DNA of 64,000 nucleotides, from contig JBJHCT010000002.1 of NCBI GenBank assembly GCA_050486185.1, positions 1,623-65,622 of the forward strand, read 5' to 3'. Source of the DNA: Candidatus Saccharimonadota bacterium (lineage in GTDB: Bacteria; Patescibacteriota; Saccharimonadia; QS-5-54-17). The notes below the pieces were generated by a model. It saw only the letters and a list, made by a program, of their open reading frames with translations. It was not told the origin of the DNA and did no database searches. Below are positions 1 through 53,258 of this stretch, piece by piece. How positions within the stretch are numbered: position 1 is the first letter of the stretch; every line of letters starts with the position of its first letter. The position numbers and the translations under genes were made by a program.

Positions 1-356
1 TAAGAGAGATAATTAATAAATATGAACTTCTAGCTACAGTGGCTGGCCATATGGGTGATGGCAACTTTCACGTTATACCACTGATGGAAATAGAAAAAGA
101 GGAGGAAAGAGCCAAGCTAGAACCAGCCATGCGTGAAGTCAATGAGCTAGTGTTGAGTTATGGTGGCTCACTATCGGGTGAACATAATGACGGTCTGATA
201 CGTGGCCCGTGGCTGAAACAGATGTATGGAGAAGAGGTTTTTAACTACTTTAAACAGGTTAAAAATATTTTCGATCCAGAGAATATCTTCAACCCTCATA
301 AGAAAACCGATGCTACTTGGGAGTACGCCCAAGATCATATAAGGGATAGTTTTTAA
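1..356 (+). CDS. FAD-linked oxidase (GlcD / D-lactate dehydrogenase family), C-terminal part; the 5' end lies outside the window
   Basis: The reading frame is open from nt 3 with no upstream stop. It translates to ...ATVAGHMGDGNFHV...GGSLSGEHNDGLIRG...NIFNPHK, typical of the C-terminal domain of FAD-binding oxidases. Confidence 0.6.
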   Translation, partial: REIINKYELLATVAGHMGDGNFHVIPLMEIEKEEERAKLEPAMREVNELVLSYGGSLSGEHNDGLIRGPWLKQMYGEEVFNYFKQVKNIFDPENIFNPHKKTDATWEYAQDHIRDSF

Positions 357-371
357 TCTAAACTGGAGCCT

Positions 372-1892
372 TTATCTAGGTACAAAATTTAGATAATCTT
401 CGTCACTACCAAATATCACTGGTGAGACAGCGTTTTCAGTCGCCTGGTTCACTTGCCAGACTATATAGTTAGGCCAGTACCAAGTTTCAGAGCTTCTAAT
501 TAGGAAGCTAGTTAGTCCGCCACCTTGCAGCACTAATACCAATGCTATTAAACAGCTAGCAACCTTGAGCTTGAGTCTATCTTTGAATAACCTACTTAAC
601 CCCAGACCCATAATAGCTATGACGCTAGGGATAACCAGTAGTAAATACCGGCCGTTTAAAGCTATTATTCTGCCACTACTGGTATATGAGGAGTAGTTAT
701 TTAGCCACAACACCAAGCAATAAAAGGCTGCTACTGCTAAAATCAGCCATAAATCAGGTCGGTTTCTAAATATTGATCTAGCATAAACAGTAGTAGCTAC
801 TAATCCTAATAAGAAAACAGCCGTAAAGCCTAGACTCATAAGCGGTAGTGGTGAGAAGTTTTGGTACCGATCAACCTCTACGTCTCCGTTAATCATGAAA
901 AACAATCTATACCACATACCGCTATGCCATTTACCGATATGCTCACTTAAACTTGGTGTAAATTCAGGGTCGATATCTTGGTCGTAGTAGTAGTTTCTCT
1001 CATACGGACCAAACTCCATGCACTGTTCATGAGATATAACCTCATCACAGCTAGGCATCAAAGTTTGATACTGGATTAGATTCAGCCCATAGCGCTCAAA
1101 AGCTAGCCCCATTCCTAGCAGCAACAGTAGCGGTAGGAGTAGCTTAGCTTTTGTAGATAGGTTGCCCCAACTAGCCTTCGTAACCTCAGCCATAGAAGCT
1201 AAATTATCTTTAAACTTAACCAATCCATAGATGAGTAAGAAAGCTGCCGTAGCTGCTAGGATAGGCAGTACTGCGTACTTAGTGATTGCAGCAAATACTG
1301 CTACAACAGCTAGTATTAGTAGATTTTTAATAGGTATTTTTTGTTGTTTGAGCTGTTTAGTAATATCAACTGCTAGTACTAACGTCCAAGCCACTAGTAG
1401 AATCAATAGATTATCGTAGTTTATATGGGCAGCTAGCAAAGGCACTATCGGTATGAGAGTAAATAGCAGCAGGCTGATATGGGTTAGGGCTGGTGACACC
1501 TTTAGTTTTAGAAATAGTTTACGGAAAATAACTAAAGCGTAAACAAATATACCGATATTAATCAGTCTGAGGGCGATAATCTGAGCTACCTGGTTATCGG
1601 TAAGCACGTCTAATATACGGTAAGGCCAACTCAATAGATAGTGGAAGAAGTAGGAAGGGTAGCGGTGCATAGCCGCAAAGGCATCAGCCCCTTCCGGGTG
1701 ATCTGGCAAGAACGGAAGCCACTGACTAGCATAAACTTGAATGACTCCAAAGTGGTAAGCTTCATCGAAAGCCATAGGATAAATTGCCGATAGCCCTATC
1801 CATAGAGCTTGAAAGATAAATAGACCTAAAACAATCCAAAAAAACTTAATAGAAGATAGTAGGTTGTAGATAGCTATATGCCAGTTCCTCAT
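372..1892 (-). CDS. Polytopic membrane protein, GT-C-fold glycosyltransferase-like (ArnT/PMT-type)
   Basis: 506 aa with about 12 hydrophobic helices. There is an early extracytoplasmic loop FDEAYHFG (DE motif) followed by aromatic-rich loops, as in GT39/GT83 glycosyltransferases. It lies 14 nt downstream of the LTD gene on the same strand. Confidence 0.4.
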   Translation of the reverse strand: MRNWHIAIYNLLSSIKFFWIVLGLFIFQALWIGLSAIYPMAFDEAYHFGVIQVYASQWLPFLPDHPEGADAFAAMHRYPSYFFHYLLSWPYRILDVLTDNQVAQIIALRLINIGIFVYALVIFRKLFLKLKVSPALTHISLLLFTLIPIVPLLAAHINYDNLLILLVAWTLVLAVDITKQLKQQKIPIKNLLILAVVAVFAAITKYAVLPILAATAAFLLIYGLVKFKDNLASMAEVTKASWGNLSTKAKLLLPLLLLLGMGLAFERYGLNLIQYQTLMPSCDEVISHEQCMEFGPYERNYYYDQDIDPEFTPSLSEHIGKWHSGMWYRLFFMINGDVEVDRYQNFSPLPLMSLGFTAVFLLGLVATTVYARSIFRNRPDLWLILAVAAFYCLVLWLNNYSSYTSSGRIIALNGRYLLLVIPSVIAIMGLGLSRLFKDRLKLKVASCLIALVLVLQGGGLTSFLIRSSETWYWPNYIVWQVNQATENAVSPVIFGSDEDYLNFVPR

Positions 1893-1906
1893 AACTGGTA
1901 TATATT

Positions 1907-3661
1907 CTACCTGTTTTTAGTAATTTTGCGTAAGAGGTGGTGTATATCTCTGCGCCACTCCCAGAGGCCGTAGACTAGGGCTAAAGTAAATATAGTGGCG
2001 GCATACCACCAACTGATTGGTGCGGCTACGTAAGCTGCTCGAACCTCCTCTATATCATTAATAACTTCCTCATTAGGCAAGACTATGTTACGGCACCTGT
2101 TAGTTTCGGGGTTACGTTCTTGATTGGGTCCACAAGGAGTAAGTGAGGAAGTTGTTTCAATATTTCTACATCTGTTAGTTTCAGGATTACGTTCTTGATG
2201 AGGTCCACAAGGAACTAGCTGCCTGGCAGCGGATTCGATATTGCGACACCTATTGGTCTCAGGGTTGCGCTCTCTTCCTGGCCCACAATCAGGCAAGGGT
2301 TCTTCCTCTACTATATTCCTACACCTATTAGTCTCAGAATGTCTGAACTGTCCCTCAGGGCAGGGTCTGCTAGGCTGTTTGATGTTACTTTCCCCAGGGG
2401 TAGGAGAATAGCTCCACTGCCAAAAGAACTCATCATCCATAAATAGCGACCAAGAAGCTCCCTCTGGAATACTCTCTTCATATAAACTACTATCTAGGTT
2501 CATTTCTTCTAGATTTTCTAGATTTAGCTCATCTAGTTCAACATAGTTTTGATCTAGTAGATAAACCTTGCCACTGACTCCTACAGGTAGAGAGATTTTA
2601 CTTTCTTCTTCAAAAAAGGCCATAAACTCTCTAGCCCCTAAGATTAACTCATCATCAAACCAGAATATATCGCTCAAAGAACCGCTATTAACGGATAGAG
2701 TCTGTAAACCACAACCCTCTAGTGATATAGACTCATCTGTTGGATTATGTATCTCTATAAAGGCGTGTTCTTCTCTAGGAAACTGACTGCGAGGCCCTTT
2801 GGGGTTTGGAAGTAGCTCTGATAATATAACCCCTTCACAGTAGGTGGTGGGTTGCTCATCTAGACCTTCCTCGTCGGTATCACCTTCTTGATTATTGCCA
2901 TTATCGTCATCACCATCATCAGTATCATCACCGTTTTCTGGCTCTAAACAATCATAAGACTCTTTGGGTCTAGGTTGAGAGCTGATAGCAAAATCCAAAG
3001 AGTTATCTTCTTGATTAAATATCTCACCATCTTCTAAGAAACAACGGTGCAGGGATTGATCTCTATCCAATGTCAAAGCTGCTTCAACCAAAGGGGAGTC
3101 GGCACCGCCCCAACCTAGTAGATCAACAATCAGCCAACTACCATTTTGCTGTTGGTCTGGTTTAATCAGCCGTAGATGTCCGCCGCTATCGGCTAAACCA
3201 GCCCCGCTAAGCAGTAACTCAACATCGATACCGGGGTTTTTGTCTACAAACTCCTCAGTAGCAATTAGAAAGAAAGAGTTGGGCTCAATAGAGTAGGTAG
3301 CTTCTCCAGATTGGTTTGAGCTAATGCGATTGCTCCAGTTTGTACCGGTTGCTGCCTTGTACTCTAACCGCCACTCGGTTAGATCGATAACCTCATCGGT
3401 AGCATTATATAGCTCTACAAATTCGTATAAAGCATCATCCTCGCTACCGGTTTGAACCTCGCTAATTAATACAGAAGCATTAGGTGAGAACTCCCATTCC
3501 TGCGCATCGCTTTCAGCCGATACACTAACAGGCCAACTCCAAACCAAGCTAACAACAATCAATCCCAAAACTTTAAATAAACACATTATCTCTTCCAACC
3601 TCAAACTTTGAGTACCATCATAAAGTCTGTATTTAGATTTTGCAAACATTTGTTTATTCAA
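1907..3661 (-). CDS. Secreted, C-terminally membrane-anchored protein with two lamin-tail domains (LTD), an acidic Asp-rich linker and four tandem Cys-containing repeats
   Basis: Signal peptide (LGLIVVSLVWSWPVSVSA|ESD; the true start is probably the internal Met at about nt 3586). LTD signatures appear twice: VLISEVQTG...YEFVELYNATDEVIDLTEWRL and VILSELLPNP...AFIEIHNPTDESISLEGCGL. This is followed by a DDTDDGDDDNGNN linker, four PCGPxxERNPETNRCRNI repeats, and a C-terminal TM helix WWYAATIFTLALVYGLW. It overlaps the ComEC stop by 8 nt. Confidence 0.55.
   Translation of the reverse strand: MNKQMFAKSKYRLYDGTQSLRLEEIMCLFKVLGLIVVSLVWSWPVSVSAESDAQEWEFSPNASVLISEVQTGSEDDALYEFVELYNATDEVIDLTEWRLEYKAATGTNWSNRISSNQSGEATYSIEPNSFFLIATEEFVDKNPGIDVELLLSGAGLADSGGHLRLIKPDQQQNGSWLIVDLLGWGGADSPLVEAALTLDRDQSLHRCFLEDGEIFNQEDNSLDFAISSQPRPKESYDCLEPENGDDTDDGDDDNGNNQEGDTDEEGLDEQPTTYCEGVILSELLPNPKGPRSQFPREEHAFIEIHNPTDESISLEGCGLQTLSVNSGSLSDIFWFDDELILGAREFMAFFEEESKISLPVGVSGKVYLLDQNYVELDELNLENLEEMNLDSSLYEESIPEGASWSLFMDDEFFWQWSYSPTPGESNIKQPSRPCPEGQFRHSETNRCRNIVEEEPLPDCGPGRERNPETNRCRNIESAARQLVPCGPHQERNPETNRCRNIETTSSLTPCGPNQERNPETNRCRNIVLPNEEVINDIEEVRAAYVAAPISWWYAATIFTLALVYGLWEWRRDIHHLLRKITKNR
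2088..2355 (-). repeat. Four tandem coding repeats of about 75-81 nt inside the LTD gene (ERNPETNRCRNI units)
   Basis: Near-identical DNA segments ...tctgttagtttcagg/gggttacgttcttga... start at about 2088, 2166, 2240 and 2322 on the plus strand. Confidence 0.7.
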
Positions 3662-5120
3662 CCGGATTCTCTTGACGCAAGTTATATCCAGTAACTTTTA
3701 AGAGGTAAATAATGAGGACTAATATCAAAAAGTAGCTCAAGGCTAGATGTGTTGAGTTAAAAACTATCTCGTTATAGGCTATTTGTTGAGCAGCCAGCCA
3801 GTCACTAATTTGGTTGATATAACTTAGGATAATGTAGCTAGGCATACCAACAAAAACACCTAAAGCACTAGAAACCGTAGCTACTAGACCGCTAGCAGCA
3901 GTCAGTAGCATCACTATCGGCACTAGCGGCAAGATTAACAAGTTGGATGCTAGAGCTAATGGCGAATAATGACCAAAAGTGTAGGCGATGATAGGGAAGG
4001 TAGTAATTTGAGCTGAGGTAGTAGCAAGGACTATGTAGCGAAACATTCCTGGTTCAGTTCCGCCCCAAAAGTAGCTATTTAGTAGTGGTGCTAGGATAAT
4101 AACTCCAGCAAAAGCTGTGAAAGATAGAAACCAGCCGACATCACCCCATATAGAGCTAGGATCAATCACCACTGTTATAGCTGCTACAAATAAGAGTAAG
4201 ACTAGAGGATGAAAACTGCGTCCATAATACCAAGCTAGCAGGCTCAAGCCACTGACTAGAGCTGCTCTAGTCATAGAGGTACTAAAACCGGTAACTAATA
4301 AAAAGCCGAAAATACCGATAAAGCTCATCAGTGTAGCTAAGTATTTGGATAATCTCATGAAGCTTCTGCGCAAGTATTTAACCACGATACTTAAGTGAAA
4401 ACCGCTAGCAACCACTATATGAGCTAGCCCTAGGATACGCAGCCGCTCCAGTAAGTCACTCGGCAGTAGTTGCCTCTGTCCAAACAAAAAGCTAATTCCT
4501 AGTAGCGACTCAGGTTCAGGGATAGCTTCTTGGATGCGATCGGCAAAAAAGTCGCGGGCCCTTCGAGCTATATCACCAGGAATAGGTCTATAGATATCAA
4601 CTAGTTCTGCGCGGAAGATTGAGGCTGATAAATTACCAAAACCTTCTTCTAAATTGCCTTGAATAGATACAATATCACCTCTTTTAATCTCTAGATCTGT
4701 GCTTAAACTCACCCATATATCCCCTGGTAGTTTAGTAGAATCAATCGTAACTCTATCTAGACGCAGACTCATATTTCTGCCACTAACAGTGCCGGTGTCA
4801 TCAGCTACTCGTGCTTCTAGGCTGACAAAATTTCCATAATATTGTTCATATCCCAACATCTCATACTGTTGATTAGCACCTAAGAAAAGCCCAACTAATA
4901 CACCACCGGCTAAAAATATAGGCAACATCAAAACACGAGAGTTGAAGAAGCCAGCAATAATCAAAGAAAGAGCTACAACTAACCACTGAATAGAATAAAA
5001 ACTGTCGGGAGGTACTACTAGAATAGAGGCTACTCCGGCCAAAATCCCTAGTGAGATGGTAGCTATGGCCCAAGAGGGGTGAAGTCTGCGCTTGATTACA
5101 AACCCAATCTTATCAATCAC
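3654..5120 (-). CDS. comEC: ComEC/Rec2 DNA internalisation channel with DUF4131 OB-fold and competence domain, no beta-lactamase domain
   Basis: 488 aa. N-terminal TM helices, an OB-fold-like segment (GNFVSLEARV...GDIWVSL...RGDIVSIQG), then the competence-domain signature LLGISFLFGQRQLLPSDLLERLRILGLAHIVVASGFHLSIV and further TM helices. The protein ends without a metallo-beta-lactamase domain. It overlaps the neighbouring genes by 8 nt on each side. Confidence 0.75.
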   Translation of the reverse strand: MIDKIGFVIKRRLHPSWAIATISLGILAGVASILVVPPDSFYSIQWLVVALSLIIAGFFNSRVLMLPIFLAGGVLVGLFLGANQQYEMLGYEQYYGNFVSLEARVADDTGTVSGRNMSLRLDRVTIDSTKLPGDIWVSLSTDLEIKRGDIVSIQGNLEEGFGNLSASIFRAELVDIYRPIPGDIARRARDFFADRIQEAIPEPESLLGISFLFGQRQLLPSDLLERLRILGLAHIVVASGFHLSIVVKYLRRSFMRLSKYLATLMSFIGIFGFLLVTGFSTSMTRAALVSGLSLLAWYYGRSFHPLVLLLFVAAITVVIDPSSIWGDVGWFLSFTAFAGVIILAPLLNSYFWGGTEPGMFRYIVLATTSAQITTFPIIAYTFGHYSPLALASNLLILPLVPIVMLLTAASGLVATVSSALGVFVGMPSYIILSYINQISDWLAAQQIAYNEIVFNSTHLALSYFLILVLIIYLLKVTGYNLRQENPVE

Positions 5121-5880
5121 TTATAGCCCCTCTTTCAACCGGCAGTACTTGCAGAGGACAAGTATCCAGTACTTGCTCCATAGCCTGCTTTTCCTTTGGT
5201 CTAACCCAAAGCTCGTACTTGAGCTTAACTGCTATTTGCCTAGCTATATATAGGCATTGATATTCTTGTGGTGGCAGCCAATCGGCTGCATCTTTATCAC
5301 CCTTAGCCATATTAGCCGGACCATCGATAGCAACTAGATTTAAGGGATCGTTATAGAATCTATGCCTTTGCTCATAACTTAGATCTTGGGCACCTTTAAT
5401 CCAAGCATCAGAGACCGCTACTAGGTGCTCTATATGTATATCACCGCTTGTATCTGGTCCACGAACAAACTCGATGCGAGTAAGGGTGAAGGGGTCACGT
5501 TCTAACACACCTGATAAGACGGTGCAGTTATCCTCATCTAAAACTATATCTACTAAATCGCGTTGCAAAATCCTATTCCTCATATCGCAACCACCAACAG
5601 TAGTCCAGCTGGAGCTGAAGTTATCTCGGCTATAGTCATCACGCGAGACAGCCTCAGCTACTGCTAGTTGGCCCAAGGCCTCTTTAGCTAATACTAAAGA
5701 GTCATCTTGTTCGATCTCTTCTATAGATAGACCTTGGTGGCTGCTTTGAGACATTAATCGCTGCTGATTGATGTGGTTGATAAATAAACCAACAGCTACA
5801 ACCGCAGCTATGACAACTAGCAATAAAAATCTGCGACGATGGTAAACTCTCTCTGTTTTATCCAAGAAACTATCCTTCAA
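5113..5880 (-). CDS. Membrane-anchored extracytoplasmic nuclease, His-Me finger / DUF1524 (GmrSD C-terminal-like) family
   Basis: N-terminal signal-anchor (FLLLVVIAAVVAVGLFI). The motifs SWTTVGGCDMRNRILQRD...IHIEHLVAVSDAWIKGA...RHRFYNDPLNLVAIDGPANMAKGDKDAADWLPPQEYQCLYIARQIAVKLKYEL match the DUF1524 HNH-like nuclease pattern (DxDH...W..GA...R..FANDP.NL.AV...N.SKGD....WLPP..Y.C.Y). It is first in the operon with comEC. Confidence 0.5.
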   Translation of the reverse strand: MKDSFLDKTERVYHRRRFLLLVVIAAVVAVGLFINHINQQRLMSQSSHQGLSIEEIEQDDSLVLAKEALGQLAVAEAVSRDDYSRDNFSSSWTTVGGCDMRNRILQRDLVDIVLDEDNCTVLSGVLERDPFTLTRIEFVRGPDTSGDIHIEHLVAVSDAWIKGAQDLSYEQRHRFYNDPLNLVAIDGPANMAKGDKDAADWLPPQEYQCLYIARQIAVKLKYELWVRPKEKQAMEQVLDTCPLQVLPVERGAISD

Positions 5881-6011
5881 AACACCTTTAACAACAAACT
5901 GACATTGCTTGCTAACTTAGCATTCATAACTCAAAACTTGCAAGCATTGCTAAAGATAAATGGTTATGGTATGGTCTGGAATATATAGCTTAATAATTAG
6001 ATAAAACAAAA

Positions 6012-6596
6012 ATGTCGACTATTGAAGCAGCATCAACTTTAACCAGATCTTATGAAAGAGAGGTTGCTACAGGTGAGTCGATACTTTTAGCAGACGCTAG
6101 ATCACAGGCTTTACGAGAACTTGAAGATAGCTTGCCGATTAGAAATTCTAACTTAGTAGTTCCTGAAACAGTGCCTAAAAACGCAGACGATCTCTTGCTG
6201 TTTGTAGAAACCCAGGCCATAAATAGCACTAGAGAGTCGGTCTGTAGATATGTTAGAGATAAGATGCAAAGATATAAGGTTGGACAAACAGCTTTAGGTA
6301 GTAGGGAAGAAGCTGAGCTAAATATACTACCTCTATCTGGCAGACTAGATACAGCACTATTATTGCAGTCTGCTAGTTGGTTTGGCTTTAGGTACTTTCA
6401 CGATGTTAACTCTCCGATTATTCGTAAACTAGATGAACTGGATTTAAGAACAGCTGTAGATGGAGATCACCGCGTTCAGCAGAACGGACTAGTATTAAGA
6501 GCTTTACTATCTACTCTAGAATCGATAGAGATGGATTTAACACCACTAGCTAGAGCCCAAGGGGCGCAAGCTCTGGGTTATAGGTCTAGCTTTTAA
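6012..6596 (+). CDS. Hypothetical protein (soluble, 194 aa)
   Basis: Long ORF with no recognisable motif; divergent from the nuclease gene. Confidence 0.35.
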   Translation: MSTIEAASTLTRSYEREVATGESILLADARSQALRELEDSLPIRNSNLVVPETVPKNADDLLLFVETQAINSTRESVCRYVRDKMQRYKVGQTALGSREEAELNILPLSGRLDTALLLQSASWFGFRYFHDVNSPIIRKLDELDLRTAVDGDHRVQQNGLVLRALLSTLESIEMDLTPLARAQGAQALGYRSSF

Positions 6597-6629
6597 TTAT
6601 TACTCTTTCAGATTACACTATTTGAATAA

Positions 6630-6721
<92 letters not shown>

Positions 6722-6797
6722 ATTTATCAAAGACTAAATCTAAAAGATTAGAGTCAGACTGTTCCGGTTATTGTTTTAATTTGCTAAAATTTAAACA

Positions 6798-7319
6798 ATG
6801 AGAATAAGACGAATTGCAAGTAAAATTCGAGGATCAATATTTTTATTCGGCATCTCCATCCTCAGTTTACTGAAGGTACCCGCAGTTTTTGCAGATATAC
6901 CTGGGAACGTACGAGACCCTAAGAATCCTTACCCTCATATGAATCCGGATCCTGCATTAAATTATGGACAAGTTTCTACCTATGTTTTATTAACTTTAGC
7001 TTTAGAGCTTCCAATATTCTACCTTCTAGGTTTTAAGTCAAAAAAAGCACTGGGGCTTGTGGCGATAGTAAATATTATTAGTGTTTCCGCTTTTCATATT
7101 CTTAACTTCACCCTTAATGTAGAGCTCTTCTACGGTGTTGGTTTATTGATTGCTGAACTATTAATAATTATTTTCGAATTCTCACTGCTAGCGATGTTCT
7201 TGAGAAAAGAAATAGCAATTAAGAAAATAATAATCGCCACGGTAGTAGCAAATACTGTCTCTGCGCTAATTGGCATATTTATTATCAATATTATTTTTGA
7301 TGCAATAGGACTATTCTAG
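6798..7319 (+). CDS. Hypothetical integral membrane protein (173 aa, about 4 TM helices)
   Basis: Hydrophobic helices and an AT-rich gene immediately downstream of the tRNA. Confidence 0.4.
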   Translation: MRIRRIASKIRGSIFLFGISILSLLKVPAVFADIPGNVRDPKNPYPHMNPDPALNYGQVSTYVLLTLALELPIFYLLGFKSKKALGLVAIVNIISVSAFHILNFTLNVELFYGVGLLIAELLIIIFEFSLLAMFLRKEIAIKKIIIATVVANTVSALIGIFIINIIFDAIGLF

Positions 7320-7321
7320 AT

Positions 7322-8311
7322 GTGATTAACCGGCGGCTAGCGATAATACTGCTTTTGTCTATCCCCATAATTATTCTGTCGGTGGTATTGATTAAAGACT
7401 TCGACAAAGACATTACTAATAGAAACTTTAGCGAACGGATGGCATTAGATTTTTATGCTGAGTGCGACAGTGGAGTCGATATGCATCGCGTTTACTGCCT
7501 TGAGGTTAAAATTATCTCCTATATATCTAGTTTTCCTGCAGAAACAGGGAATGTCTTTGCAACTTTTTGGGAAACAGGTAAAAGCGGAAAATTATCAGAC
7601 GATATGCGAATCTTTTCTGATATAGCACATAAAGCAGGAATGGTACTAGCAAACAGCGACATATCTTTAGATAAAGCTTTATCTTTTTGCGGCACAACCT
7701 TTAAGCAAGGCTGTATTCACGGAGTAATTATGGAGTATATAGACAACAAATATCCCTCTGAAATCGAAGCTTCTACATTGTTTGATTTTTGTGGCACAGT
7801 CTCTGATGAAAACTATATTATTTATATAAACTGTTTGCATGGGGTAGGGCATATACTAGCTGCAAAAAGCAGAGATTCAATCCAGTCAATTCTGGGTCTA
7901 TGTGATCCTCTATCTGCCGAGGAAAGCTTTGCCTGCGCAAGTGGAGTTCTTATGGAATACTCAAAAGGTACCGCAGGTTCTGGTGCGCATGCGCATACGC
8001 CGGTTGGCAAAAAGGAGCTGCCCTGTGTAGAGCTCGACGATGAGTATAAGTCGGTTTGCTATGCGAGCGCCGGTTCATACAGGCAATACCAGCCTGGTCA
8101 AGAGGATTTTAGTAAAAGCTATAACTTTTGTCTTAATAGTCCAGAGGAGTATATCGATGACTGTTTGATTGGATTGTCTGAACGAGCAATTTTGGCTTCG
8201 GCGGAAAATCAAGAAAAATTAAACGATATTTGTGCGGAAATTGAAAATCAAGATGCAAGATTTGCGTGTGTTGACTCAATTCAAAAATTACTCGAAATAC
8301 CATACCTCTAA
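7322..8311 (+). CDS. Membrane-anchored Cys-rich protein with about 6 internal C-x(7-12)-C-(x)-G modules
   Basis: N-terminal TM helix. Repeated units FCGTTFKQGCIHGVIMEY / FCGTVSDENYIIYINCLHGVGHIL / LCDPLSAEESFACASGVLMEY / PCVELDDEYKSVCYASAGSY / FCLNSPEEYIDDCLIGL / ICAEIENQDARFACVDS. The start codon abuts the upstream stop. Confidence 0.45.
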   Translation: MINRRLAIILLLSIPIIILSVVLIKDFDKDITNRNFSERMALDFYAECDSGVDMHRVYCLEVKIISYISSFPAETGNVFATFWETGKSGKLSDDMRIFSDIAHKAGMVLANSDISLDKALSFCGTTFKQGCIHGVIMEYIDNKYPSEIEASTLFDFCGTVSDENYIIYINCLHGVGHILAAKSRDSIQSILGLCDPLSAEESFACASGVLMEYSKGTAGSGAHAHTPVGKKELPCVELDDEYKSVCYASAGSYRQYQPGQEDFSKSYNFCLNSPEEYIDDCLIGLSERAILASAENQEKLNDICAEIENQDARFACVDSIQKLLEIPYL

Positions 8312-8599
8312 TCTTTTAGAGTTAACCTGATAAATTAAAGGTGCAGCTACGAATTTTTACTTCTATCCCTTGAACTGGGGATAGAAAAGAAAGCAAAACG
8401 ACAAGTAGACTCTTGTTCTAGTGAGCGCACTTTAGCGATTTCTCCCATAACCAAAGAATAGCTAGAAGTTTGCGCAGCATAAGGCCAATTGCTACAATGT
8501 GACTACAAAGTTTTTAGATAAAACTAACTAATTGTAATTAAGCCTCAGTCAATCAAAAAGAAAATATTATCAAGACACAAAACTAATTAACAATCCTAT

Positions 8600-8812
8600 A
8601 TGATACATAGAAGCCAGAAATTAACCCCCTTTAAGCAGACACTTTTTACCCTGTTAATTGGCCTATCTGTTGTTGCATTTTGGAGAGGTGCTTGGGGAAT
8701 TATGGATGCTTATTTGCTCCCAAATAATCATGAACTAAGTTCATGGGTTTCGATCATAATTGGATTAGCTATCTTATACATAACTCATTATTGGACAAAA
8801 GAGTTGGCCTAA
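8600..8812 (+). CDS. Small two-TM membrane protein (70 aa)
   Basis: Hydrophobic ORF after a 288-nt noncoding gap. Confidence 0.3.
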   Translation: MIHRSQKLTPFKQTLFTLLIGLSVVAFWRGAWGIMDAYLLPNNHELSSWVSIIIGLAILYITHYWTKELA

Positions 8813-8839
8813 AATCAACAACTGATAATGGCTTAGTAT

Positions 8840-9763
8840 TTACTGACTTGTAAAGACCGAGTAAAGTGGCTCTTTTCTACTACCATCCAGACTATATAAG
8901 CCTAAATCAGCCCACTCCTCACCGGTTTCAGGTGAACCATACAACAAACCCCAAGATACGAACTGTACATTTCGACCATCGATAATCTCTGAAAAACGCT
9001 CATAAAAGGCAGCTTGAGATTCTCCAGCAGTACTATATCCTGATAAATAAGCCGGCAAATGAGTCCAACCAATCTCGGTAAAAGCTACTGGTATATCAAG
9101 CCTACTGGCAATATCGAAAGCCTGATCGTAGTAGTTACTAGGGATATCATTTAAGTTAGCGTATCTAGCAAATGGGTAGGAGGTTAGAGCTAGTAAGTCG
9201 ATTTTGAGATTATCTATCAACTCAGGCTCAAATCTCTCATACTGGAAAGTCGGATAGATGATACAGTCTGAGCACTCCGCCTTAATAGCATCATAGATAC
9301 CGTTATACGCACCTACAAATTCACTTTTGTGAGTCATCAGCTCTAGTTCGTTGCCTAAACCTATAAAAACAGGGTCATATTGCCTAACAAGCTCTAAATA
9401 GGCCTGTTTCAAGCCATCCATATCAGAAACACTACCACCGGCCATATTCGGTACTGGTAGGTCGTTATAGCCTAGCTCAAATCCAGCCCTGATAACTTCT
9501 GGAACCTCACCATCTAAAGAAGGAGCGTTAAAGAAACTTAAACCTACCTCATTAGCTCTTTGTAGATCAGTAGCAAAATCATCATGAAACACAAAGCCAA
9601 CACCGCTAGAGGTATTTAAATACTGTTTTCTCAGATCATTATCACTGCTTTTTATATCCAAAATAGAATCTGAAGACTTTCGGTCCGAAGTAATTACAAC
9701 AATAGTAGCTACTACAACCGATATAGCTAAGATTGCGAGAATGATAATGGCTAGTTTCTTCAT
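8840..9763 (-). CDS. Membrane-anchored putative glycoside hydrolase, TIM-barrel clan GH-A-like (GH5/GH26/GH113-type)
   Basis: N-terminal TM anchor. A GLGNELEL (NE acid/base-like) motif and a later FTEIGW (nucleophile-like) motif at the spacing expected for clan GH-A. Confidence 0.35.
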   Translation of the reverse strand: MKKLAIIILAILAISVVVATIVVITSDRKSSDSILDIKSSDNDLRKQYLNTSSGVGFVFHDDFATDLQRANEVGLSFFNAPSLDGEVPEVIRAGFELGYNDLPVPNMAGGSVSDMDGLKQAYLELVRQYDPVFIGLGNELELMTHKSEFVGAYNGIYDAIKAECSDCIIYPTFQYERFEPELIDNLKIDLLALTSYPFARYANLNDIPSNYYDQAFDIASRLDIPVAFTEIGWTHLPAYLSGYSTAGESQAAFYERFSEIIDGRNVQFVSWGLLYGSPETGEEWADLGLYSLDGSRKEPLYSVFTSQ

Positions 9764-34830: not shown

Positions 34831-35889
34831 ATGGCCAAGAAACCTAATCAGGAAGAAGCCAACCAAAAAGCAACTGTTGATACAAGCAGTTCCTCTAGTT
34901 CTGGCTGGAAGCATTTCAGGTTGCAAAAGCCAGGCTCTGGCAACGACAAGCTAAACAATCGCTCAGTCAAAATAGCTGCATTAATAGCTACACTATTAAT
35001 CTTGGCGGTATTTGCTTGGGTAACAACCGATCCCTTGGATAGGTTGAGCGATAGCACAGATAGCGAAGAAGCCTTCAATATAGAGGGAGTGTCTTTTAGT
35101 GAAGATGATATAGCTCCTTATATAGATGGCGCTAGAGAAGTAGGTATAGATCCAGAAATTATGCGCCAAGCTATTGAAGAGGGTCTAACCTTTAAGGTTT
35201 TAGCCGATGAATACGGTGTAGAAATATCCGATGATTTAATCAGAGAAACTATAGAGAAATATGATAGCTACGACCCAGAGCTTGTAGAGACCAATGCTTG
35301 GGTTAGGTTAGTCGGTTTTAGGCTAGCTATGGAAGATCAGATTATGGAGTCTCCAGAAGGCGAAGCTAGGGGCTATGCCTTTATATTCTATTTCGGCACA
35401 CTAGCTGATGATTATGTACCGCCAGAAGAGATGGGTGAATCTCTACCAGAGGAAGTCGAGTCTCGATTAGGAGATGAAGGAGCGATAGCTGCCGATAGAG
35501 AATATGCTAGAGAGCAGGCCGAGTATTATCATTCAGAACTTACAGCCGGCAACATAACTGCTGATGAAGCTCTGGAAGCTATTAGAAATGACAATCGCTT
35601 AGTTCATAACTATCATGACAATCCAGAGTTGAGCTACTCACTGCAGTTTGGTTATAGCGACGAACTATCTTGGGATGCTGAGTTGTGGTTGCTAAATGCT
35701 AGAGAGTTTGTACAGCAATATGACGAAATCGATAATTATTCTGATATAAATCTAGGCAAACTCAATTACATAGAGGCAGAGGGTGAATACGATGCCTATT
35801 ACTACTTCGTATATTTAGAAGAGTCGGTCGGACCCTTAAGTGCTATAGCTAATAGAATTGTAGAATTAGGGATAGTAACGCCATGGTAA
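34831..35889 (+). CDS. Hypothetical N-terminally anchored acidic extracytoplasmic protein (352 aa)
   Basis: TM helix IAALIATLLILAVFAWV then an acidic domain. Its stop overlaps the next gene. Confidence 0.4.
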   Translation: MAKKPNQEEANQKATVDTSSSSSSGWKHFRLQKPGSGNDKLNNRSVKIAALIATLLILAVFAWVTTDPLDRLSDSTDSEEAFNIEGVSFSEDDIAPYIDGAREVGIDPEIMRQAIEEGLTFKVLADEYGVEISDDLIRETIEKYDSYDPELVETNAWVRLVGFRLAMEDQIMESPEGEARGYAFIFYFGTLADDYVPPEEMGESLPEEVESRLGDEGAIAADREYAREQAEYYHSELTAGNITADEALEAIRNDNRLVHNYHDNPELSYSLQFGYSDELSWDAELWLLNAREFVQQYDEIDNYSDINLGKLNYIEAEGEYDAYYYFVYLEESVGPLSAIANRIVELGIVTPW

Positions 35890-38099
35890 GAATTCTCAAA
35901 AAACTCAGTGTAGCCACTATTATGCTTTTTGCTTCAGTGGCTCTAGTCTCCCTAGTTTCCGCTGAAGAGGTTTACGCCAACGAGGGTTGTAATCAGTGGG
36001 GGGTAGTTAATGTTAGGGCTACTCATAGAGACACTAGGACCGGAGTGACCGGAAATGTGTCAGGAGTGACTGCTAACTTTAGCTCCAATATGAATGGGTC
36101 TAGAAGCAGTACAATATCAGGGGGTAGTACTAGTTTTGGTAATTTACGTTGTGGTTGCGTTGACGGCACTGGTCCAGCTAGCTACAGCGTTAGTGTTTCT
36201 GGTACTCCTAGCGGCACTGTTAGTGGTGGTAGTTGGAGTTCAAGTAATAGTAGTGGGACTATTAGGAACGGCTCTCCCGCAACTGCCACATTTACATATA
36301 ACTGGCAATCAACCTATTATAGATACGATACTAGTATTAGCGTTTCAGGTAGTTCGACCACTCCTAAGCCAGGTCAGGATATAACAGTTAGAGGTACAGT
36401 TAGAAATAGCGGCACTGACAATGGACGAGGCTACGATTATCGCATCAGGGTAACTAGTGGTAGCCAGTATTTGGTTAGCTCCAGTTCGTCCTCAGGCAGT
36501 GGTAGTGGTTTAAGCCGGGGTAGTAGCAGAAACCACTCAACAACATATAGGGTTAGGGATGATGCTCCGCATAACGTTCAGATTAGATTTGAATTTAGAG
36601 CCGGTAATTCTCGCCAAGAACAAGTTAGGCCGACTAGAAGAGTAGAAGATAGCGGCTATAGCACTAGTTCTGGCAGTACTAGGGTATACAACCAGCAGTT
36701 TGAGTTAAGCAATATTACTATATCTGGTGATGACAACTATGTAACACCAGGAATCAACGGCACCGATCTAGAGATATTAGTTAATGTAGTTAATAACGGT
36801 GACGTTACTTCAGCTCCATCAGCGATTAATAACTCGGGAGCCTCAGGGGGTACATCTAGCGGAGTAACAACTACTTTAGATGTTTATCGTAACGACCAGA
36901 GAGTTGATAGACAGACCTTTAGCGGCCAAATATCACGTGGTGCAGGTGGTAGAACTTTTGAGTATACCCACACTATTCCTAATTCAGACCCAGAAGATAC
37001 AGTTTATTGTTTCATAGCTTATTCTAATCCAACATCTGGTTGGAGTGATGGTTCTAGTTACCGAGGAGCGCCTTTCAGTAATGATCCAGAACCGGTCAGA
37101 ACTTCTGATAATGTCGATGATTGCGGCGACGAGAGTAGGGTAACCACCCAGGCCTATTTCCAAGTATCTCGTAACGATATATTCTCCGGCGTATCCTTTG
37201 CTGGCGGCAGTAATCCACTTACCGGCTGCTCACCTGTAGATGCTTCTAGAGCTTTCATAAGTGCTGCTAGGACTGGCACAGGCTCTAGCGACTACGGTTC
37301 ATTGGTAGAGTATGCTGCCTATGCACTAGATGTAATTAGTCGTTTTGGCACGGCCGTAGGAGTTGGCAATAATGTATCGGCGTCTAGTTTCTTTACAGCC
37401 TCACCTGGTAATGACGCTCTAGCCTTTGCTAATGAACCAAACCAAGGTTTCTTAGGCAACGATGCCTATAGATGTATGTCGGATCTATTTACTATGTTAG
37501 ATAAAGACCAGGCGGTTGTGCCTAACAACACCAACAACATATCTCTAGCTGGCTTATTCGGTAGCAGTAATGATATTCAAGTATATGGTGGTGATAATAC
37601 CAATATTAGAATTACCAACGGTAACCTAGGAAATGCCAACAACCGCAGACTAACTTTGATAGCTGATGGCGATATCACTATTACTAGCGATATCAGATAC
37701 CAGGGCAGCAGCTCTCAGTATCGATCAAATAACGTAGCAATCATTGCCAAGGGTAATATATTAATAGAAAGCGGAGTAGAAGAGATTAACGCTATGCTAT
37801 ACGCCATACCTAGAGATGAAGGCGGTGGCGGAGTAATAGATACTTGTTCTAATCATGAGAATCTAGGTACCGATGTTTGTGGCGATCAACTTAGGGTTAC
37901 TGGTGTGGTAGTGGCTGATAGGCTAGATCTAAAACGTACACACGGTGGTATATCAGGCGATCGAGATAGGGAGCCGGCTGAAATCTTCCGATTTTCTCCA
38001 GATATGTTTATTCGAGCACCTTTCTTTGTTTTTGCTGAAGGTGTGCCCACGCCGGATCTACAAGTTCAGCAATTAGTCGATTTACCACCACTGTTTTAA
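35883..38099 (+). CDS. Large secreted Ser/Gly/Thr/Asn-rich surface protein (738 aa), possibly beta-helical, directly upstream of pilM
   Basis: Signal peptide ...SLVSAEEVYA. Low-complexity S/G/T tracts and a C-terminal region with repetitive ...LTLIADGDITITSDIRYQGS...NVAIIAKGNILIESG... strands. Confidence 0.45.
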   Translation: MVRILKKLSVATIMLFASVALVSLVSAEEVYANEGCNQWGVVNVRATHRDTRTGVTGNVSGVTANFSSNMNGSRSSTISGGSTSFGNLRCGCVDGTGPASYSVSVSGTPSGTVSGGSWSSSNSSGTIRNGSPATATFTYNWQSTYYRYDTSISVSGSSTTPKPGQDITVRGTVRNSGTDNGRGYDYRIRVTSGSQYLVSSSSSSGSGSGLSRGSSRNHSTTYRVRDDAPHNVQIRFEFRAGNSRQEQVRPTRRVEDSGYSTSSGSTRVYNQQFELSNITISGDDNYVTPGINGTDLEILVNVVNNGDVTSAPSAINNSGASGGTSSGVTTTLDVYRNDQRVDRQTFSGQISRGAGGRTFEYTHTIPNSDPEDTVYCFIAYSNPTSGWSDGSSYRGAPFSNDPEPVRTSDNVDDCGDESRVTTQAYFQVSRNDIFSGVSFAGGSNPLTGCSPVDASRAFISAARTGTGSSDYGSLVEYAAYALDVISRFGTAVGVGNNVSASSFFTASPGNDALAFANEPNQGFLGNDAYRCMSDLFTMLDKDQAVVPNNTNNISLAGLFGSSNDIQVYGGDNTNIRITNGNLGNANNRRLTLIADGDITITSDIRYQGSSSQYRSNNVAIIAKGNILIESGVEEINAMLYAIPRDEGGGGVIDTCSNHENLGTDVCGDQLRVTGVVVADRLDLKRTHGGISGDRDREPAEIFRFSPDMFIRAPFFVFAEGVPTPDLQVQQLVDLPPLF

Positions 38100-38146
38100 A
38101 TTAGCATCAAACATCGGTTTTTAGCTCTTCCCACCACTTAACGCTT

Positions 38147-39220
38147 GTGCTAAAATTACTACAAGCTATGGCTAATTTTTTATCAAATAAAATCAAGGAC
38201 AGTTTCTTTGCCCTAGATATAGGCTCTACGGCTGTGCGAGCTGTACAGCTTAAGGGTGTAGATATACCCAAGAACATCATGTCCTATGCGTCAGTACCTA
38301 TAGATCCTAGGATTGCAGAAAGCGATTCTAAGCAAGACTTACAATCCCTAAAAAAGACTATTGAGAAACTAATCAAAGATGCCGGTATCAGCGAAAAAAA
38401 CGTAGTGGCTGGTATACCTACCAAGAAAATATTTGCTTCCGTAGTAGATTTTCCTAAACTATCAGGTGCAGAGCTTAAGAAAACAGTCGAGTATCAGCTA
38501 GAGAGCCATGTACCGACATCGATAGATGAGGTCAAAGTTGACTGGGTGCCTCTAGGCCCGTCTTTAGTTGATGAGGATAAACTAGAGGTATTGATCGTTA
38601 GTGTGAATAAAGACTTTGCAGAAGAGCGCATGAACCTAATCGATGATTTAGGACTTAATACTATTGCTTTTGAACCAGATGCTATCGCTTTAACTAGATC
38701 CCTAGTCAGTAGTGGCTACAGTGGCTCTAGCTTGTTGCTTGATTTAGGCTATCTAAACACTGATTTAGTTATCACGGTTGGTGATAAGCCAAGATTAATC
38801 AGATCGGTACCTGTAGGTGGTCAATCATTCGTTAAAACAGTAGCTCAGAATTTAAACCTAGATGCTAATCAAGCCCAGCAGTTTGTTTATAAGTTTGGGT
38901 TAAGCACTGATAAGGCGGAGGGGCAAATATATAAGGCACTAGAGAACGTTGTAGAGAATTTAATTAGCGAGATTAGTAAATCGATTAAGTTCTTCTCCGA
39001 TCGATACTCCGGAGCTAAGCTAGACCGCATAGTAGTTACTGGTGGGGCATCGGCATTACCAGGACTGCCTTTATATATAGCCAATAGAACCGGTATACAG
39101 GTAGAGATCGGCAATCCTTGGCAGAACATCTCCTATTCTCCCAGCCAATACAATGAGTTGATTAGATTATCTAGTCACTATGCTACGGCTTTAGGTTTAG
39201 GATTGAGGGCTGAAGAATGA
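38147..39220 (+). CDS. pilM: Type IV pilus assembly protein PilM (actin-like ATPase)
   Basis: FALDIGSTAVRAVQL phosphate-1 motif; VTGGASALPGL. Confidence 0.75.
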   Translation: MLKLLQAMANFLSNKIKDSFFALDIGSTAVRAVQLKGVDIPKNIMSYASVPIDPRIAESDSKQDLQSLKKTIEKLIKDAGISEKNVVAGIPTKKIFASVVDFPKLSGAELKKTVEYQLESHVPTSIDEVKVDWVPLGPSLVDEDKLEVLIVSVNKDFAEERMNLIDDLGLNTIAFEPDAIALTRSLVSSGYSGSSLLLDLGYLNTDLVITVGDKPRLIRSVPVGGQSFVKTVAQNLNLDANQAQQFVYKFGLSTDKAEGQIYKALENVVENLISEISKSIKFFSDRYSGAKLDRIVVTGGASALPGLPLYIANRTGIQVEIGNPWQNISYSPSQYNELIRLSSHYATALGLGLRAEE

Positions 39221-39918
39221 TAACCATTAACTTACTCCCAGATATCAAGAAAGACTATATTAACGCTAGGCGGCAGCGTAACAAGGTGGTCGGCTGGTCT
39301 ATTTTTGCAGGAGGCGGCGCGATAGTCTTAGTAATTATTTCCTTAATTATTATAGCCGCTCAATGGGTAGTAGTTAATAATACTCGAGAGAATGTTGAGG
39401 CCTTAAGCCAAGAACTAGCAGACAAAGAAGATGTTATTGAATTAATAACTGTCCAAAACCAGCTACAAGTATTACCAGAACTGCACTTGCAAAAACCTAA
39501 AATTGATCGACTTTTTGAGTATCTGCAGTCACTGACTCCAGAAGGTGTGCGTTTGAGCTCAGTCAGACTAGATATGGATCGCCAAATCCTAGAAATCACC
39601 GGTAATGCTAGAAGCATTAGAGATTTTAATGCGCTGGTCGATACCTACAAGGCTACTCTCTATCAGGCGCAATCAGTAGATTCTAACGGTGATTCAACTA
39701 GTTTTTCCAGCCCCTTGGCGGCTTTTGAGGATGTTAGATCGGTAATGAGTATCGATGCAGCTACTCAGAATGCTAACTTTAGAATCACTATGGAGTTTGA
39801 CCCTGCTATATTTGACGCTCGCTACCCATCAGTTAGAATCTCTGCTAATGGTGTAGTTGCTGATGAAGATGATTCTGGCGAGGTTATTTTCGATGATTCA
39901 ATCGAGGTTGAGGAGTAG
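39217..39918 (+). CDS. pilN: PilN-like bitopic protein
   Basis: Single N-terminal TM after a basic stretch. Gene order pilM-N-O with 4-nt overlap. Confidence 0.5.
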   Translation: MITINLLPDIKKDYINARRQRNKVVGWSIFAGGGAIVLVIISLIIIAAQWVVVNNTRENVEALSQELADKEDVIELITVQNQLQVLPELHLQKPKIDRLFEYLQSLTPEGVRLSSVRLDMDRQILEITGNARSIRDFNALVDTYKATLYQAQSVDSNGDSTSFSSPLAAFEDVRSVMSIDAATQNANFRITMEFDPAIFDARYPSVRISANGVVADEDDSGEVIFDDSIEVEE

Positions 39919-39920
39919 CC

Positions 39921-40559
39921 ATGAATTTATTTGATATAAACCTCACCAAAGATACCAAGATAGATAAAATCAAATCGACCATGATGGCATCGGTCATAAT
40001 ATCTGTGATAGTTATATCTTTCTCGTTGGTATTTTTGAAGTTCTTATTTGACCTTTGGAGCTACAGCGGCAGAGTCTACTCGGCCCAAAGAGAGGCTCGA
40101 ACAGTACTAGAATCTAATATCGAGGCCTACGAGCAGATGAAGCCTGAGTTTGACGTACTCAACTCAGCTAGCGGTACACCAGCTAGCCCAGACTCTAGCG
40201 TAGTTTTAGATGCTTTGCCTCATATATATGACTTTCCAGCTCTAGCTGCTTCGATGAAAAAACTAGCTGATTTAAGCGGAGTACAGCTAGTAGCTTTTAG
40301 TGGAGTGGATGAGGAGGGAGCTGTACCGGGTCCATCTCCTACACCCGTGCCATATGATGTTCACTTTCGCATAGAAGTCGGTGGATCATATGATGATATT
40401 CAAGCCTTTATCAACTCTTTAGATACTTCTATACGGCCATTTGAAATTACAGCTATTGAATTATTTGGTTCTGATAATACATTGAGAGCTGATATTAGAC
40501 TTAAAACCTATTATCAGCCGACCAAGAATCTTAATTATCCACAAAGGGTGGTGCAGTAA
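39921..40559 (+). CDS. pilO: PilO-like bitopic protein
   Basis: TM helix plus periplasmic domain; gene position. Confidence 0.45.
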   Translation: MNLFDINLTKDTKIDKIKSTMMASVIISVIVISFSLVFLKFLFDLWSYSGRVYSAQREARTVLESNIEAYEQMKPEFDVLNSASGTPASPDSSVVLDALPHIYDFPALAASMKKLADLSGVQLVAFSGVDEEGAVPGPSPTPVPYDVHFRIEVGGSYDDIQAFINSLDTSIRPFEITAIELFGSDNTLRADIRLKTYYQPTKNLNYPQRVVQ

Positions 40560-40813
40560 TGTTAGAGCAAAAAGATATCATCGCCATATCATTAATAGCT
40601 GTTATGAGTTTCATAGCTTCTTTCTTCATAGCTGCAGCTTTGATAACTACACCTGAGGATAGGGCCGAGTCGGTGATGGAGGTTAACGAACTCTCATCTA
40701 ATTTCTCACATCCCGATAGCGCTATATTTAATGAAGATGCCATTAACCCTACAGAAGAGATAACTATTGGAGGCGATTCTGCCACTAATCCATTTGATTC
40801 AGATAGGGATTAG
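40559..40813 (+). CDS. Small single-TM protein after pilO (84 aa), C-terminal NPFDSD
   Basis: Paralogous in position and C-terminal motif to the 55348..55656 ORF in the second cluster. Confidence 0.3.
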   Translation: MLEQKDIIAISLIAVMSFIASFFIAAALITTPEDRAESVMEVNELSSNFSHPDSAIFNEDAINPTEEITIGGDSATNPFDSDRD

Positions 40814-40819
40814 CTTGAT

Positions 40820-42031: not shown

Positions 42032-42150
42032 GAAAGAATTTTTAAGCAAAAAGTTCTTAGTTGCGCAAACCTCTGATATGAAATAAAATATAAGCACAAG
42101 CTTGATTAAAAAAATTAAAAGATATAATATCAAGGATAGGCAACAAATTT

Positions 42151-42660
42151 ATGATAAATATTGATTCAATAAACAAGAAACTAAGATCAAGGAAACTTGA
42201 TAGTCAAAAGCAAGAAGGCTTCACTATTATTGAAGTAGTTTTGGTGCTGGCTATTGCCGGTCTAATCTTTCTAATCGTATTCTTAGCTCTACCGCAGTTG
42301 CAGAGCACTCAAAGAGACTCTCAAAGAAGGTCTGACTTGGGTAGATTTATGTCCGCACTCGAGACTTATGCATCTAACAACAACGGTAGGTATCCTAACG
42401 ATTCTGACTTGCAGCAGATGAACGCTTTTGTGGACGGCTACTTAACTAATCAAGGTGCTACTTTTAATGATCCACTGGAAGACGACTACCAGTTCGGCAA
42501 CGATCCTACTAGCCTAAGCTCGGGTACTATCTATTATCGAACAGGGGCTTACTGTGGTGACTCGGAAGGGACTTTTGCTACCGACGGTGCAGGGTCTAGG
42601 AATATAGCTGCTATGGTGCCTTTAGAGAATGGTATAGCTTACTGTATAGACAATAGGTAG
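42151..42660 (+). CDS. Type IV pilin (prepilin-type leader)
   Basis: Leader ...KQEG|FTIIEVVLVLAIAGLIF with Glu+5. 169 aa with a C-terminal Cys pair. Confidence 0.7.
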   Translation: MINIDSINKKLRSRKLDSQKQEGFTIIEVVLVLAIAGLIFLIVFLALPQLQSTQRDSQRRSDLGRFMSALETYASNNNGRYPNDSDLQQMNAFVDGYLTNQGATFNDPLEDDYQFGNDPTSLSSGTIYYRTGAYCGDSEGTFATDGAGSRNIAAMVPLENGIAYCIDNR

Positions 42661-53246: not shown

Positions 53247-53258
53247 GGGTATTTTAGC

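Follow-up and report, generated by a model that had tools for sequence, protein, structure and literature searches.

The DNA examined here, a stretch of 64,000 nucleotides from contig JBJHCT010000002.1 that is called the window throughout, comes from a Saccharibacterium, and the part of it under study is the locus of comEC, the gene for the DNA-uptake channel. Saccharibacteria are ultrasmall, host-dependent bacteria. We found that the comEC gene of this organism is the center of a conserved gene cluster, in which it is accompanied by a gene for an exported, endonuclease I-like DNase and a gene for an acidic surface protein with two lamin-tail domains (LTDs), and that the ComEC itself has no metallo-beta-lactamase (MBL) domain. 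Our best reading of this arrangement, for which we would give a probability of about 0.45, is that, by analogy with known uptake systems, the DNA-cutting step missing from this ComEC is contributed in trans by the nuclease, and that the channel has a conserved partner at the cell surface in the LTD protein. The three open reading frames (ORFs) that an earlier note on this DNA had described were present on the minus strand at exactly 5113-5880, 3654-5120, and 1907-3661, with lengths of 255, 488, and 584 amino acids, and the named homologues of the nuclease and of the LTD protein belong to Candidatus Saccharimonadales/Saccharibacteria.

Conservation of the gene cluster around comEC

Retrieval with the ComEC alignment yielded 27 species-level genome loci, all of them from Saccharibacterial metagenome-assembled genomes, a few of which were mislabelled. 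In 14 of these loci, comEC is directly preceded by the nuclease gene in the same orientation, and two further loci are cut by contig ends; in 19, an LTD gene follows comEC in the same orientation, and three of the other eight are cut. Since the flanking genes vary between the loci, the cluster does not reflect general synteny, and its recurrence across genomes with differing flanks places the clustering far beyond chance. One genome retained the nuclease-comEC pair, with the LTD gene approximately 8 kb away on the opposite strand. When the loci without a nuclease gene or an LTD gene were searched with the hidden Markov models of the two families, no diverged copies were found.

A second layout, comEC-yebC-LTD-ruvC-ruvA-ruvB, was found in Saccharibacteria whose ComEC proteins are only 31-37% identical to that of the window, and it is also present in the cultured S. 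epibionticum ML1 (SEML1_0777 to SEML1_0770). In the window, the yebC-ruvCAB cluster (52518-55342, plus strand) lies 47 kb away from the comEC cluster, and thus it is comEC, not the ruv genes, that the LTD gene stays with. An ORF of approximately 240 amino acids that directly follows comEC in distant Saccharibacteria was considered as a diverged nuclease and rejected, because it encodes YebC/TACO1. In one locus (L029), the insertion of an IS1595-family transposase (8402-9301 of that locus) has set yebC and the LTD gene apart, which explains the 3.7-kb spacing of these two genes there.

Domain architecture of the encoded proteins

The nuclease (5113-5880, minus strand, as are all features of the cluster given below) has 255 amino acids in its longest ORF and 250 in the NCBI annotation, which starts it at TTG 5865. 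It is predicted to be a membrane-anchored, extracytoplasmic DNase with a His-Me finger, of the DUF1524/GmrSD_C family. The DUF1524 nuclease claimed in the earlier note was recovered in Pfam as a match to GmrSD_C (PF07510, formerly DUF1524) with an E value of 3.8e-17 and 62.9 bits against a cutoff of 23, and the signal anchor claimed for it was recovered by a hydropathy scan as one N-terminal transmembrane (TM) helix at residues 19-37 behind an HRRRF motif (signal anchor at amino acids ~17-37, 5770-5832), an arrangement in which the N terminus is predicted to be inside and the catalytic domain outside. An RRRR motif and a hydrophobic stretch are kept in 42 nuclease homologues, and four cysteines (C98, C119, C209, and C241) are invariant across them; the signal anchor and these invariant cysteines imply that the protein is exported. 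The His-Me finger catalytic core (amino acids 148-197, 5290-5439) contains IEH152, R172, N177-D178, N190, K193, and D197, and in the same 42-sequence alignment H152, which is part of an (E/D)H motif, R172, N177-D178, N190, K193, and D197 are all invariant.

The fold of the nuclease is shared with endonuclease I and Vvn, which are periplasmic or secreted non-specific DNases, and this relationship is visible at the fold level only, with approximately 14% identity to endonuclease I-type structures in structural alignments. The nuclease had no match in Pfam to Endonuclease_1 (PF04231) at E<=0.01, and it had none to PF01223 or PF13930 (Endonuclease_NS, DRGH). Unlike the soluble enzymes of the endonuclease I family, it is anchored by a TM helix. 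Neither the nuclease nor the LTD protein matched a PADLOC or NCBIfam model. A PDB sequence search with the nuclease profile returned titin as the sole match, which was judged to be spurious. The paper that classified the His-Me nucleases counts DUF1524 proteins with TM segments among the putative extracellular nucleases, and reports that enzymes of the EndoI/Vvn type are activated by disulfide formation linked to export and reduce transformation rates.

The second protein (3654-5120, 488 amino acids) is a short-form ComEC/Rec2 DNA channel that lacks an MBL domain. The competence domain was matched as claimed (Competence/PF03772, E 6.3e-38, 131 bits) at residues 212-473, an envelope that corresponds to positions 3702-4487 and contains multiple TM segments. 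The score for TIGR00360 was 57.8 against a cutoff of 36.5, and that for the equivalog model TIGR00361 was 39 against a cutoff of 190. The shortness of this ComEC was also as described: Lactamase_B (PF00753) was not matched, the protein stops 15 amino acids past the channel domain, and it aligns to the solved ComEC proteins (801 and 827 amino acids) over their channel domain only. All 35 Saccharibacterial ComEC relatives are similarly short, with 477-516 amino acids. The channel domain and a probable N-terminal oligonucleotide/oligosaccharide-binding (OB) region are shared with the ComEC proteins of S. epibionticum (SEML1_0777) and B. subtilis and with the structures 30bt and 9vc6, whereas canonical ComEC, with 801-827 amino acids, has in addition a C-terminal MBL nuclease domain of approximately 300 amino acids. 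In the polytopic window protein, the probable extracytoplasmic OB-fold region (amino acids ~84-205, 4506-4871) follows an N-terminal TM region and precedes the channel domain. The OB fold proposed for it stands with a qualification, as DUF4131 (PF13567) reached only 20.8 bits here, below the Pfam cutoff of 31.6, although the orthologues in L006, L117, and S. epibionticum (SEML1_0777) pass that cutoff.

The third protein (1907-3586) is a surface protein of 559 amino acids when read from ATG 3586, in an ORF that is open up to TTG 3661. The proposed pair of lamin-tail domains was found, as LTD/PF00932 matched two stretches of the protein with 67 bits (cutoff, 34.3; E 2e-18), and the Ig folds of lamins A/C, B1, and B2 were the structural matches, with a probability of 1.0. 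The AlphaFold2 (AF2) model of the protein has a pLDDT (predicted local distance difference test score) of 81. The suggestion that the protein is secreted and tethered to the membrane also held: with a signal peptide at its N terminus and a TM helix near its C terminus, it has the layout of a type I-anchored surface protein. In order from the N terminus, the protein consists of a signal peptide that is predicted to be cleavable from its sequence and from the aligned N termini of homologues (MCLFKVLGLIVVSLVWSWPVSVSA, 3515-3586); LTD1, an Ig-like beta-sandwich (2966-3487) with a net charge of -22 (family median -16); a disordered acidic linker (2846-2965) with a net charge of -17 (family median -12) and a pLDDT of <50 at residues 238-265; LTD2, also an Ig-like beta-sandwich (2396-2845), with a net charge of -24 (family median -15); a stalk of four Cys-rich beta-hairpin repeats of the form C-x2-G-Q-x-R-N-P-E-T-N-R-C-R (2087-2374) that resembles the tumour necrosis factor receptor (TNFR); and a C-terminal TM anchor (1952-2017; AF2 helix 547-564) that carries a conserved YGxWEWRxD motif at its cytoplasmic end. 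There are 1956 homologues of the LTD protein, and the succession of signal peptide, LTD1, acidic linker, LTD2, Cys repeats, and TM anchor is kept in 48 homologues.

Across these 48 homologues, the Cys repeats have invariant Arg, Thr, Asn, and Cys residues and vary in copy number from four to five, with a consensus of five; their net charge is +1 in the window and +5.5 at the family median. Their likeness to TNFR is seen in weak matches to PF25314 (TNFR_nem) in homologues, and 'TNF receptor-like' is the published ECOD assignment for the S. epibionticum orthologue. In the motif of the TM anchor, W565 and R566 are invariant and Y560 and E564 nearly so in the 48 sequences, and conservation this strong suggests that the segment is more than a passive anchor and has a specific partner or carries a sorting signal; the motif matched none of the sorting-signal models of NCBIfam.

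The acidity of the LTD protein can be compared with that of the other two proteins. The OB region of ComEC has a net charge of -8 and the nuclease ectodomain one of -11 in the window, and both have a family median of 0. The acidity of the LTDs is therefore a trait of the family and not of this organism only. For the same reason, the idea that a generally acidic proteome explains the acidic LTDs was rejected: the ectodomains encoded in the window do exceed the norm, but the LTDs are acidic family-wide.

Gene junctions and probable extent of the operon

The three genes had been described as overlapping by 8 nt each, and this is correct for one of the two junctions. The nuclease stop and the GTG start of ComEC overlap by 8 nt (GTGATTGA, 5113-5120, minus strand), and a GAGGGG Shine-Dalgarno sequence lies 6 nt 5' of the GTG. 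Because the invariant ComEC residues H14, S16, and W17 precede every alternative start, this overlap is genuine; the same junction ranges from -14 to 0 nt in relatives. An 8-nt overlap between comEC and the LTD gene would require the TTG start at 3661, which is used in the NCBI annotation of the source genome (584 amino acids). However, the N terminus of the LTD homologue P0123 (MRLFKWTWLVV) aligns with the window sequence MCLFKVLGLIVV at ATG 3586, the two closest relatives have comEC-LTD gaps of 64 and 73 nt, and ATG 3586 has its own ribosome-binding site (GGAAGAG). It is thus likely that the LTD protein starts at ATG 3586 and that a gap of 67 nt (3587-3653), rather than an overlap, separates it from comEC.

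The operon had been proposed to consist of three genes, and while these stand, a fourth that was left out probably belongs to it. This gene (372-1892, minus strand) encodes a polytopic membrane protein of 506 amino acids and begins 14 nt past the LTD stop. Among the closest relatives, it immediately follows the LTD gene in L117 and lies close to it in L004, and the promoter/terminator scan found no terminator-like site at the boundary between the two genes. Judged from this organization, the four genes are probably co-transcribed from 5880 to 372. The sole family match of the fourth gene is a weak one to DUF6020. Its product carries an FDEAYHFG motif, which we take to resemble the loop-1 DE motif of PMT/GT-C glycosyltransferases, and its function may be to glycosylate one of the surface proteins that the operon encodes.

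Proposed role of the cluster in DNA uptake

Deletion of comEC abolishes natural transformation in the cultured S. epibionticum, in which the com genes were dispensable for growth in transposon sequencing (Tn-seq) (PMC10633639). The orthologues in this species are SEML1_0777 for ComEC, SEML1_0775 for the LTD protein, and SEML1_0519 for the nuclease. In the earlier note, the cluster had been viewed as a module for DNA import or nucleotide scavenging. Its link to DNA is plausible, given that the orthologous ComEC is required for transformation (PMC10633639), but the dispensability of the com genes argues against an obligatory role of ComEC in nucleotide scavenging.

About half of all ComEC proteins are without a nuclease domain, and how the non-transported strand is removed in their case is a stated open question (PMC8579336, PMC12455585). 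The ComEC-MBL fusion is essentially absent from the candidate phyla radiation (CPR), and the KEGG orthology entry for ComEA was found in only 31% of CPR genomes (PMC6744442). The gene tables of S. epibionticum contain no entry for ComEA, K02237, or PF12836. The association of LTDs with extracellular nucleic acids, which had also been claimed, is supported by their recurrence in the extracellular nucleases ExeM and Hvo_1477 and on an Izemoplasma protein, and the claimed fusion to ComEC by the haloarchaeal proteins in which LTDs are fused to ComEC-type MBL domains. ExeM without its LTD is less active in vitro, and the role of the bacterial LTD has been called 'not yet elucidated'.

From these elements, the following sequence of events could be proposed. 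One of the type IV pili would deliver the DNA; the nuclease, positioned beside ComEC on the outside of the membrane, would cut the DNA and/or degrade the non-transported strand in trans; and the single strand would then pass through ComEC. The LTD protein would be a conserved cell-surface partner of ComEC, to which it is linked in two operon layouts, and because of its strong negative charge it is more likely to be a scaffold, a spacer, or a cation-mediated binder than a DNA receptor like ComEA. A precedent for the proposed nuclease function is EndA of Streptococcus pneumoniae, which acts beside ComEC by degrading the non-transported strand, whereas canonical ComEC uses its own MBL domain. Both EndA and the window nuclease are membrane-anchored, extracytoplasmic members of the His-Me-finger superfamily without sequence specificity, as far as can be predicted for the latter, but EndA is a DRGH/Endonuclease_NS enzyme of group 5, while the window nuclease is a DUF1524 enzyme of group 3 whose entry role would be one by analogy. 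The endA gene is not known to be adjacent to comEC.

Several observations weigh against this reading. Among 65 assessable metagenomic loci of the nuclease family, comEC was found downstream of the nuclease gene in only 12; in the other 53, as well as in S. epibionticum, the nuclease gene is located elsewhere. In a neighbour-joining tree of the nuclease, the comEC-linked copies group together and the unlinked copies form other clades, so that the linkage appears to have had few independent origins. Moreover, in S. epibionticum, the one species that has been studied genetically, SEML1_0519 is both unlinked to comEC and non-essential in co-culture. The closest structural relatives of the nuclease (EndoI, Dns, and Vvn) lower transformation rather than serve it. 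The TM sequence of the nuclease is not conserved, and thus gives no sign of a specific contact with ComEC within the membrane, and the net charge of the LTD ectodomain is roughly -60. Finally, the promoter/terminator scan of positions 1-6800 was uninformative, as its counts were not above the shuffled expectation and nothing was found at gene boundaries. Based on the 12 of 65 linked loci and the grouping of the linked copies in the tree, the linkage of the nuclease to ComEC is a clade-specific arrangement that is stably maintained. The module proposed in the earlier note stands in its domain identities and extracytoplasmic topology, but the linkage of its nuclease gene to comEC is restricted to a single region of the nuclease phylogeny.

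A more far-reaching version of the proposal can be formulated, in which the DUF1524 ectonuclease would be the trans-acting, strand-opening or strand-degrading enzyme of the MBL-less Saccharibacterial ComEC, the LTD protein with its TNFR-like stalk would be a hitherto unrecognized, ComEA-independent component of the uptake machinery at the cell surface, and the cluster would be a split version of the LTD-nuclease-ComEC fusions found elsewhere. We consider that this combination of claims is unlikely to hold in full.

Alternative explanations

The nuclease could instead be a general surface DNase that, independently of ComEC, makes the DNA of the environment or the host available as a source of nucleotides or phosphate in nutrient scavenging, in which case its adjacency to comEC would represent a loose thematic co-regulation. 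This is a serious possibility, though on balance a somewhat unlikely one. It would account for the fact that most members of the nuclease family stand alone beside housekeeping genes; the neighbors of the unlinked copies, including SEML1_0519, encode an M1 peptidase, NusA, and a queuosine-precursor transporter. The position of SEML1_0519 away from comEC in S. epibionticum, the lack of de novo nucleotide synthesis in Saccharibacteria, and the previous listing of TM-anchored DUF1524 proteins among the putative extracellular nucleases point in the same direction. However, junctions that overlap by 8 nt or abut are kept down to a nuclease identity of approximately 42% while the flanking genes change, and the non-essentiality of SEML1_0519 in co-culture indicates that scavenging through this protein is not obligatory.

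It could also be that the LTD protein acts in the cell envelope or in the interaction with the host, unrelated to DNA uptake, and that its linkage to comEC is historical; we regard this, too, as possible but rather doubtful. The adhesin-like architecture, with Ig-like domains on a Cys-rich stalk and a TM anchor, and the acidic ectodomain would fit such a function, and SEML1_0775 is class II essential, core, and enriched in Patescibacteria, with comEC, comF, and dprA dispensable. Nonetheless, the linkage to comEC survives the rearrangement that separates the LTD gene from yebC-ruvCAB in the window. Furthermore, SEML1_0775 is located 5 nt upstream of ruvC, which is followed by the genes for a class A penicillin-binding protein (PBP) and ruvA (5-43 nt downstream), and as all of these are needed for fitness, the essentiality of SEML1_0775 might be a polar effect. 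We had considered the contrast between an essential LTD protein and a dispensable ComEC as excluding an accessory role to ComEC, and downgraded this argument because of the possible polarity on ruvC, the PBP gene, and ruvA.

The LTD protein had been suggested as a surface DNA receptor that substitutes for ComEA and passes DNA to ComEC. Like ComEA, it is membrane-tethered, extracytoplasmic, and encoded next to comEC, the LTD gene following comEC in 19 of the 27 genomes and in two layouts; ComEA is rare in the CPR and missing from the annotation of S. epibionticum; and LTDs accompany extracellular nucleases, with the in vitro activity of ExeM lowered when its LTD is removed. Yet ComEA has a helix-hairpin-helix (HhH; HHH_3) domain and a basic DNA-binding surface, and the LTD protein has neither: no HhH or other known DNA-binding domain was found in it with Pfam, and LTD1, LTD2, and the linker are acidic throughout the family (medians of -16, -15, and -12, the first two across 48 homologues), whereas neither the OB region nor the nuclease ectodomain carries a net charge at the family median. 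Direct DNA binding has been shown for no bacterial LTD, and the essentiality call for SEML1_0775 with a non-essential comEC would also speak against a receptor, although it is confounded by the possible polarity on ruvC, the PBP gene, and ruvA. A direct replacement of ComEA, as originally stated, is thus quite improbable.

Still less probable is that the nuclease limits transformation as a gatekeeper, by breaking down DNA on its way into the cell in the manner of Dns, EndoI, and Vvn in Vibrio. These enzymes are the closest structures, and they are reported to decrease the transformation rate, but co-transcription with a junction that is likely translationally coupled would yield the channel and its antagonist together. 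The regulation of dns in Vibrio, which runs opposite to that of the competence genes, also counts against a gatekeeper. That the nuclease is a type IV restriction or defence enzyme of the GmrSD type (DUF262 plus DUF1524) was rejected as having a negligible chance of being correct. GmrSD_C is its sole Pfam match and the DUF1524 His-Me domain is common to both, but with just 255 amino acids it has no DUF262/GmrS (ParB-like NTPase) domain, its signal anchor and four invariant cysteines imply export, the closest fold is that of secreted endonuclease I, and no PADLOC defence model matched it.

Genomic context and habitat

The reduced-genome context with two pilus systems, against which the cluster had been interpreted, was found to hold. 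The window contains two type IV pilus loci, in agreement with the two distinct type IV pili that have been reported for Saccharibacteria. The first (34831-45245, plus strand) includes genes for PilM (38147-39220), PilC (40820-42031), and a Gly_rich_2 protein (43524-45245), and the second (55653-63822, minus strand) includes genes for PilM (56739-57803), a prepilin (59232-59921), PilC (61038-62252), and the PilB ATPase (62263-63822). Other genes of the window encode DnaG, RpoD, PolA, Fpg, HolA, PNPase, RNase J, and FtsK. A gene for tRNA-Ser(GGA) at 6630-6721 (plus strand), within the divergent region that adjoins the comEC cluster on its upstream side, was the sole RNA gene detected in an Rfam scan of the window. 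Three ORFs of 194, 173, and 329 amino acids (6012-8311, plus strand) are divergent from the cluster and belong to no Pfam family; the 329-amino acid product is Cys-rich and has a hydrophobic segment at its N terminus.

The window also contains genes for two Na+/H+ exchangers (45264-46421, plus strand; 47138-48814, minus strand), and the extracytoplasmic domains of this organism are unusually acidic in the OB region and the nuclease when compared with the family medians given above. The isolate names of two close relatives (T3Sed10 and CSSed165cm, for L011 and L012) presumably refer to samples of soda-lake sediment. The exchangers, the isolate names, and the acidic ectodomains hint at a saline or alkaline habitat.

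Relation to known systems and significance

All parts of the cluster belong to known families, and the role of ComEC is already established in the phylum. What is new here is the conserved combination and a candidate answer to the question of the missing nuclease; in the literature that was searched, no paper relates either DUF1524 proteins or LTD proteins to ComEC in Saccharibacteria. As in ExeM of Shewanella, Hvo_1477 of Haloferax, and the haloarchaeal 'ComA' (MBL plus LTD), an LTD is tied in the window to a surface nuclease and a ComEC-type module. In contrast to those proteins, the LTD protein, the nuclease, and the channel are three separate polypeptides encoded in one cluster, and the LTD protein has two LTDs and a TNFR-like Cys stalk and no catalytic domain. 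The arrangement also differs from that in S. epibionticum, where comEC is found together with yebC, the LTD gene, and ruvC but away from the nuclease gene.

If the proposed roles are wrong, a well-defined comEC operon with what is predicted to be an ordinary surface DNase would still have been described. The locus names two concrete candidates, the nuclease for removal of the non-transported strand and the LTD protein for the question of how ComEA is replaced in most CPR bacteria (PMC6744442), and since their orthologues SEML1_0519 and SEML1_0775 exist in the genetically tractable S. epibionticum, both hypotheses are directly testable.

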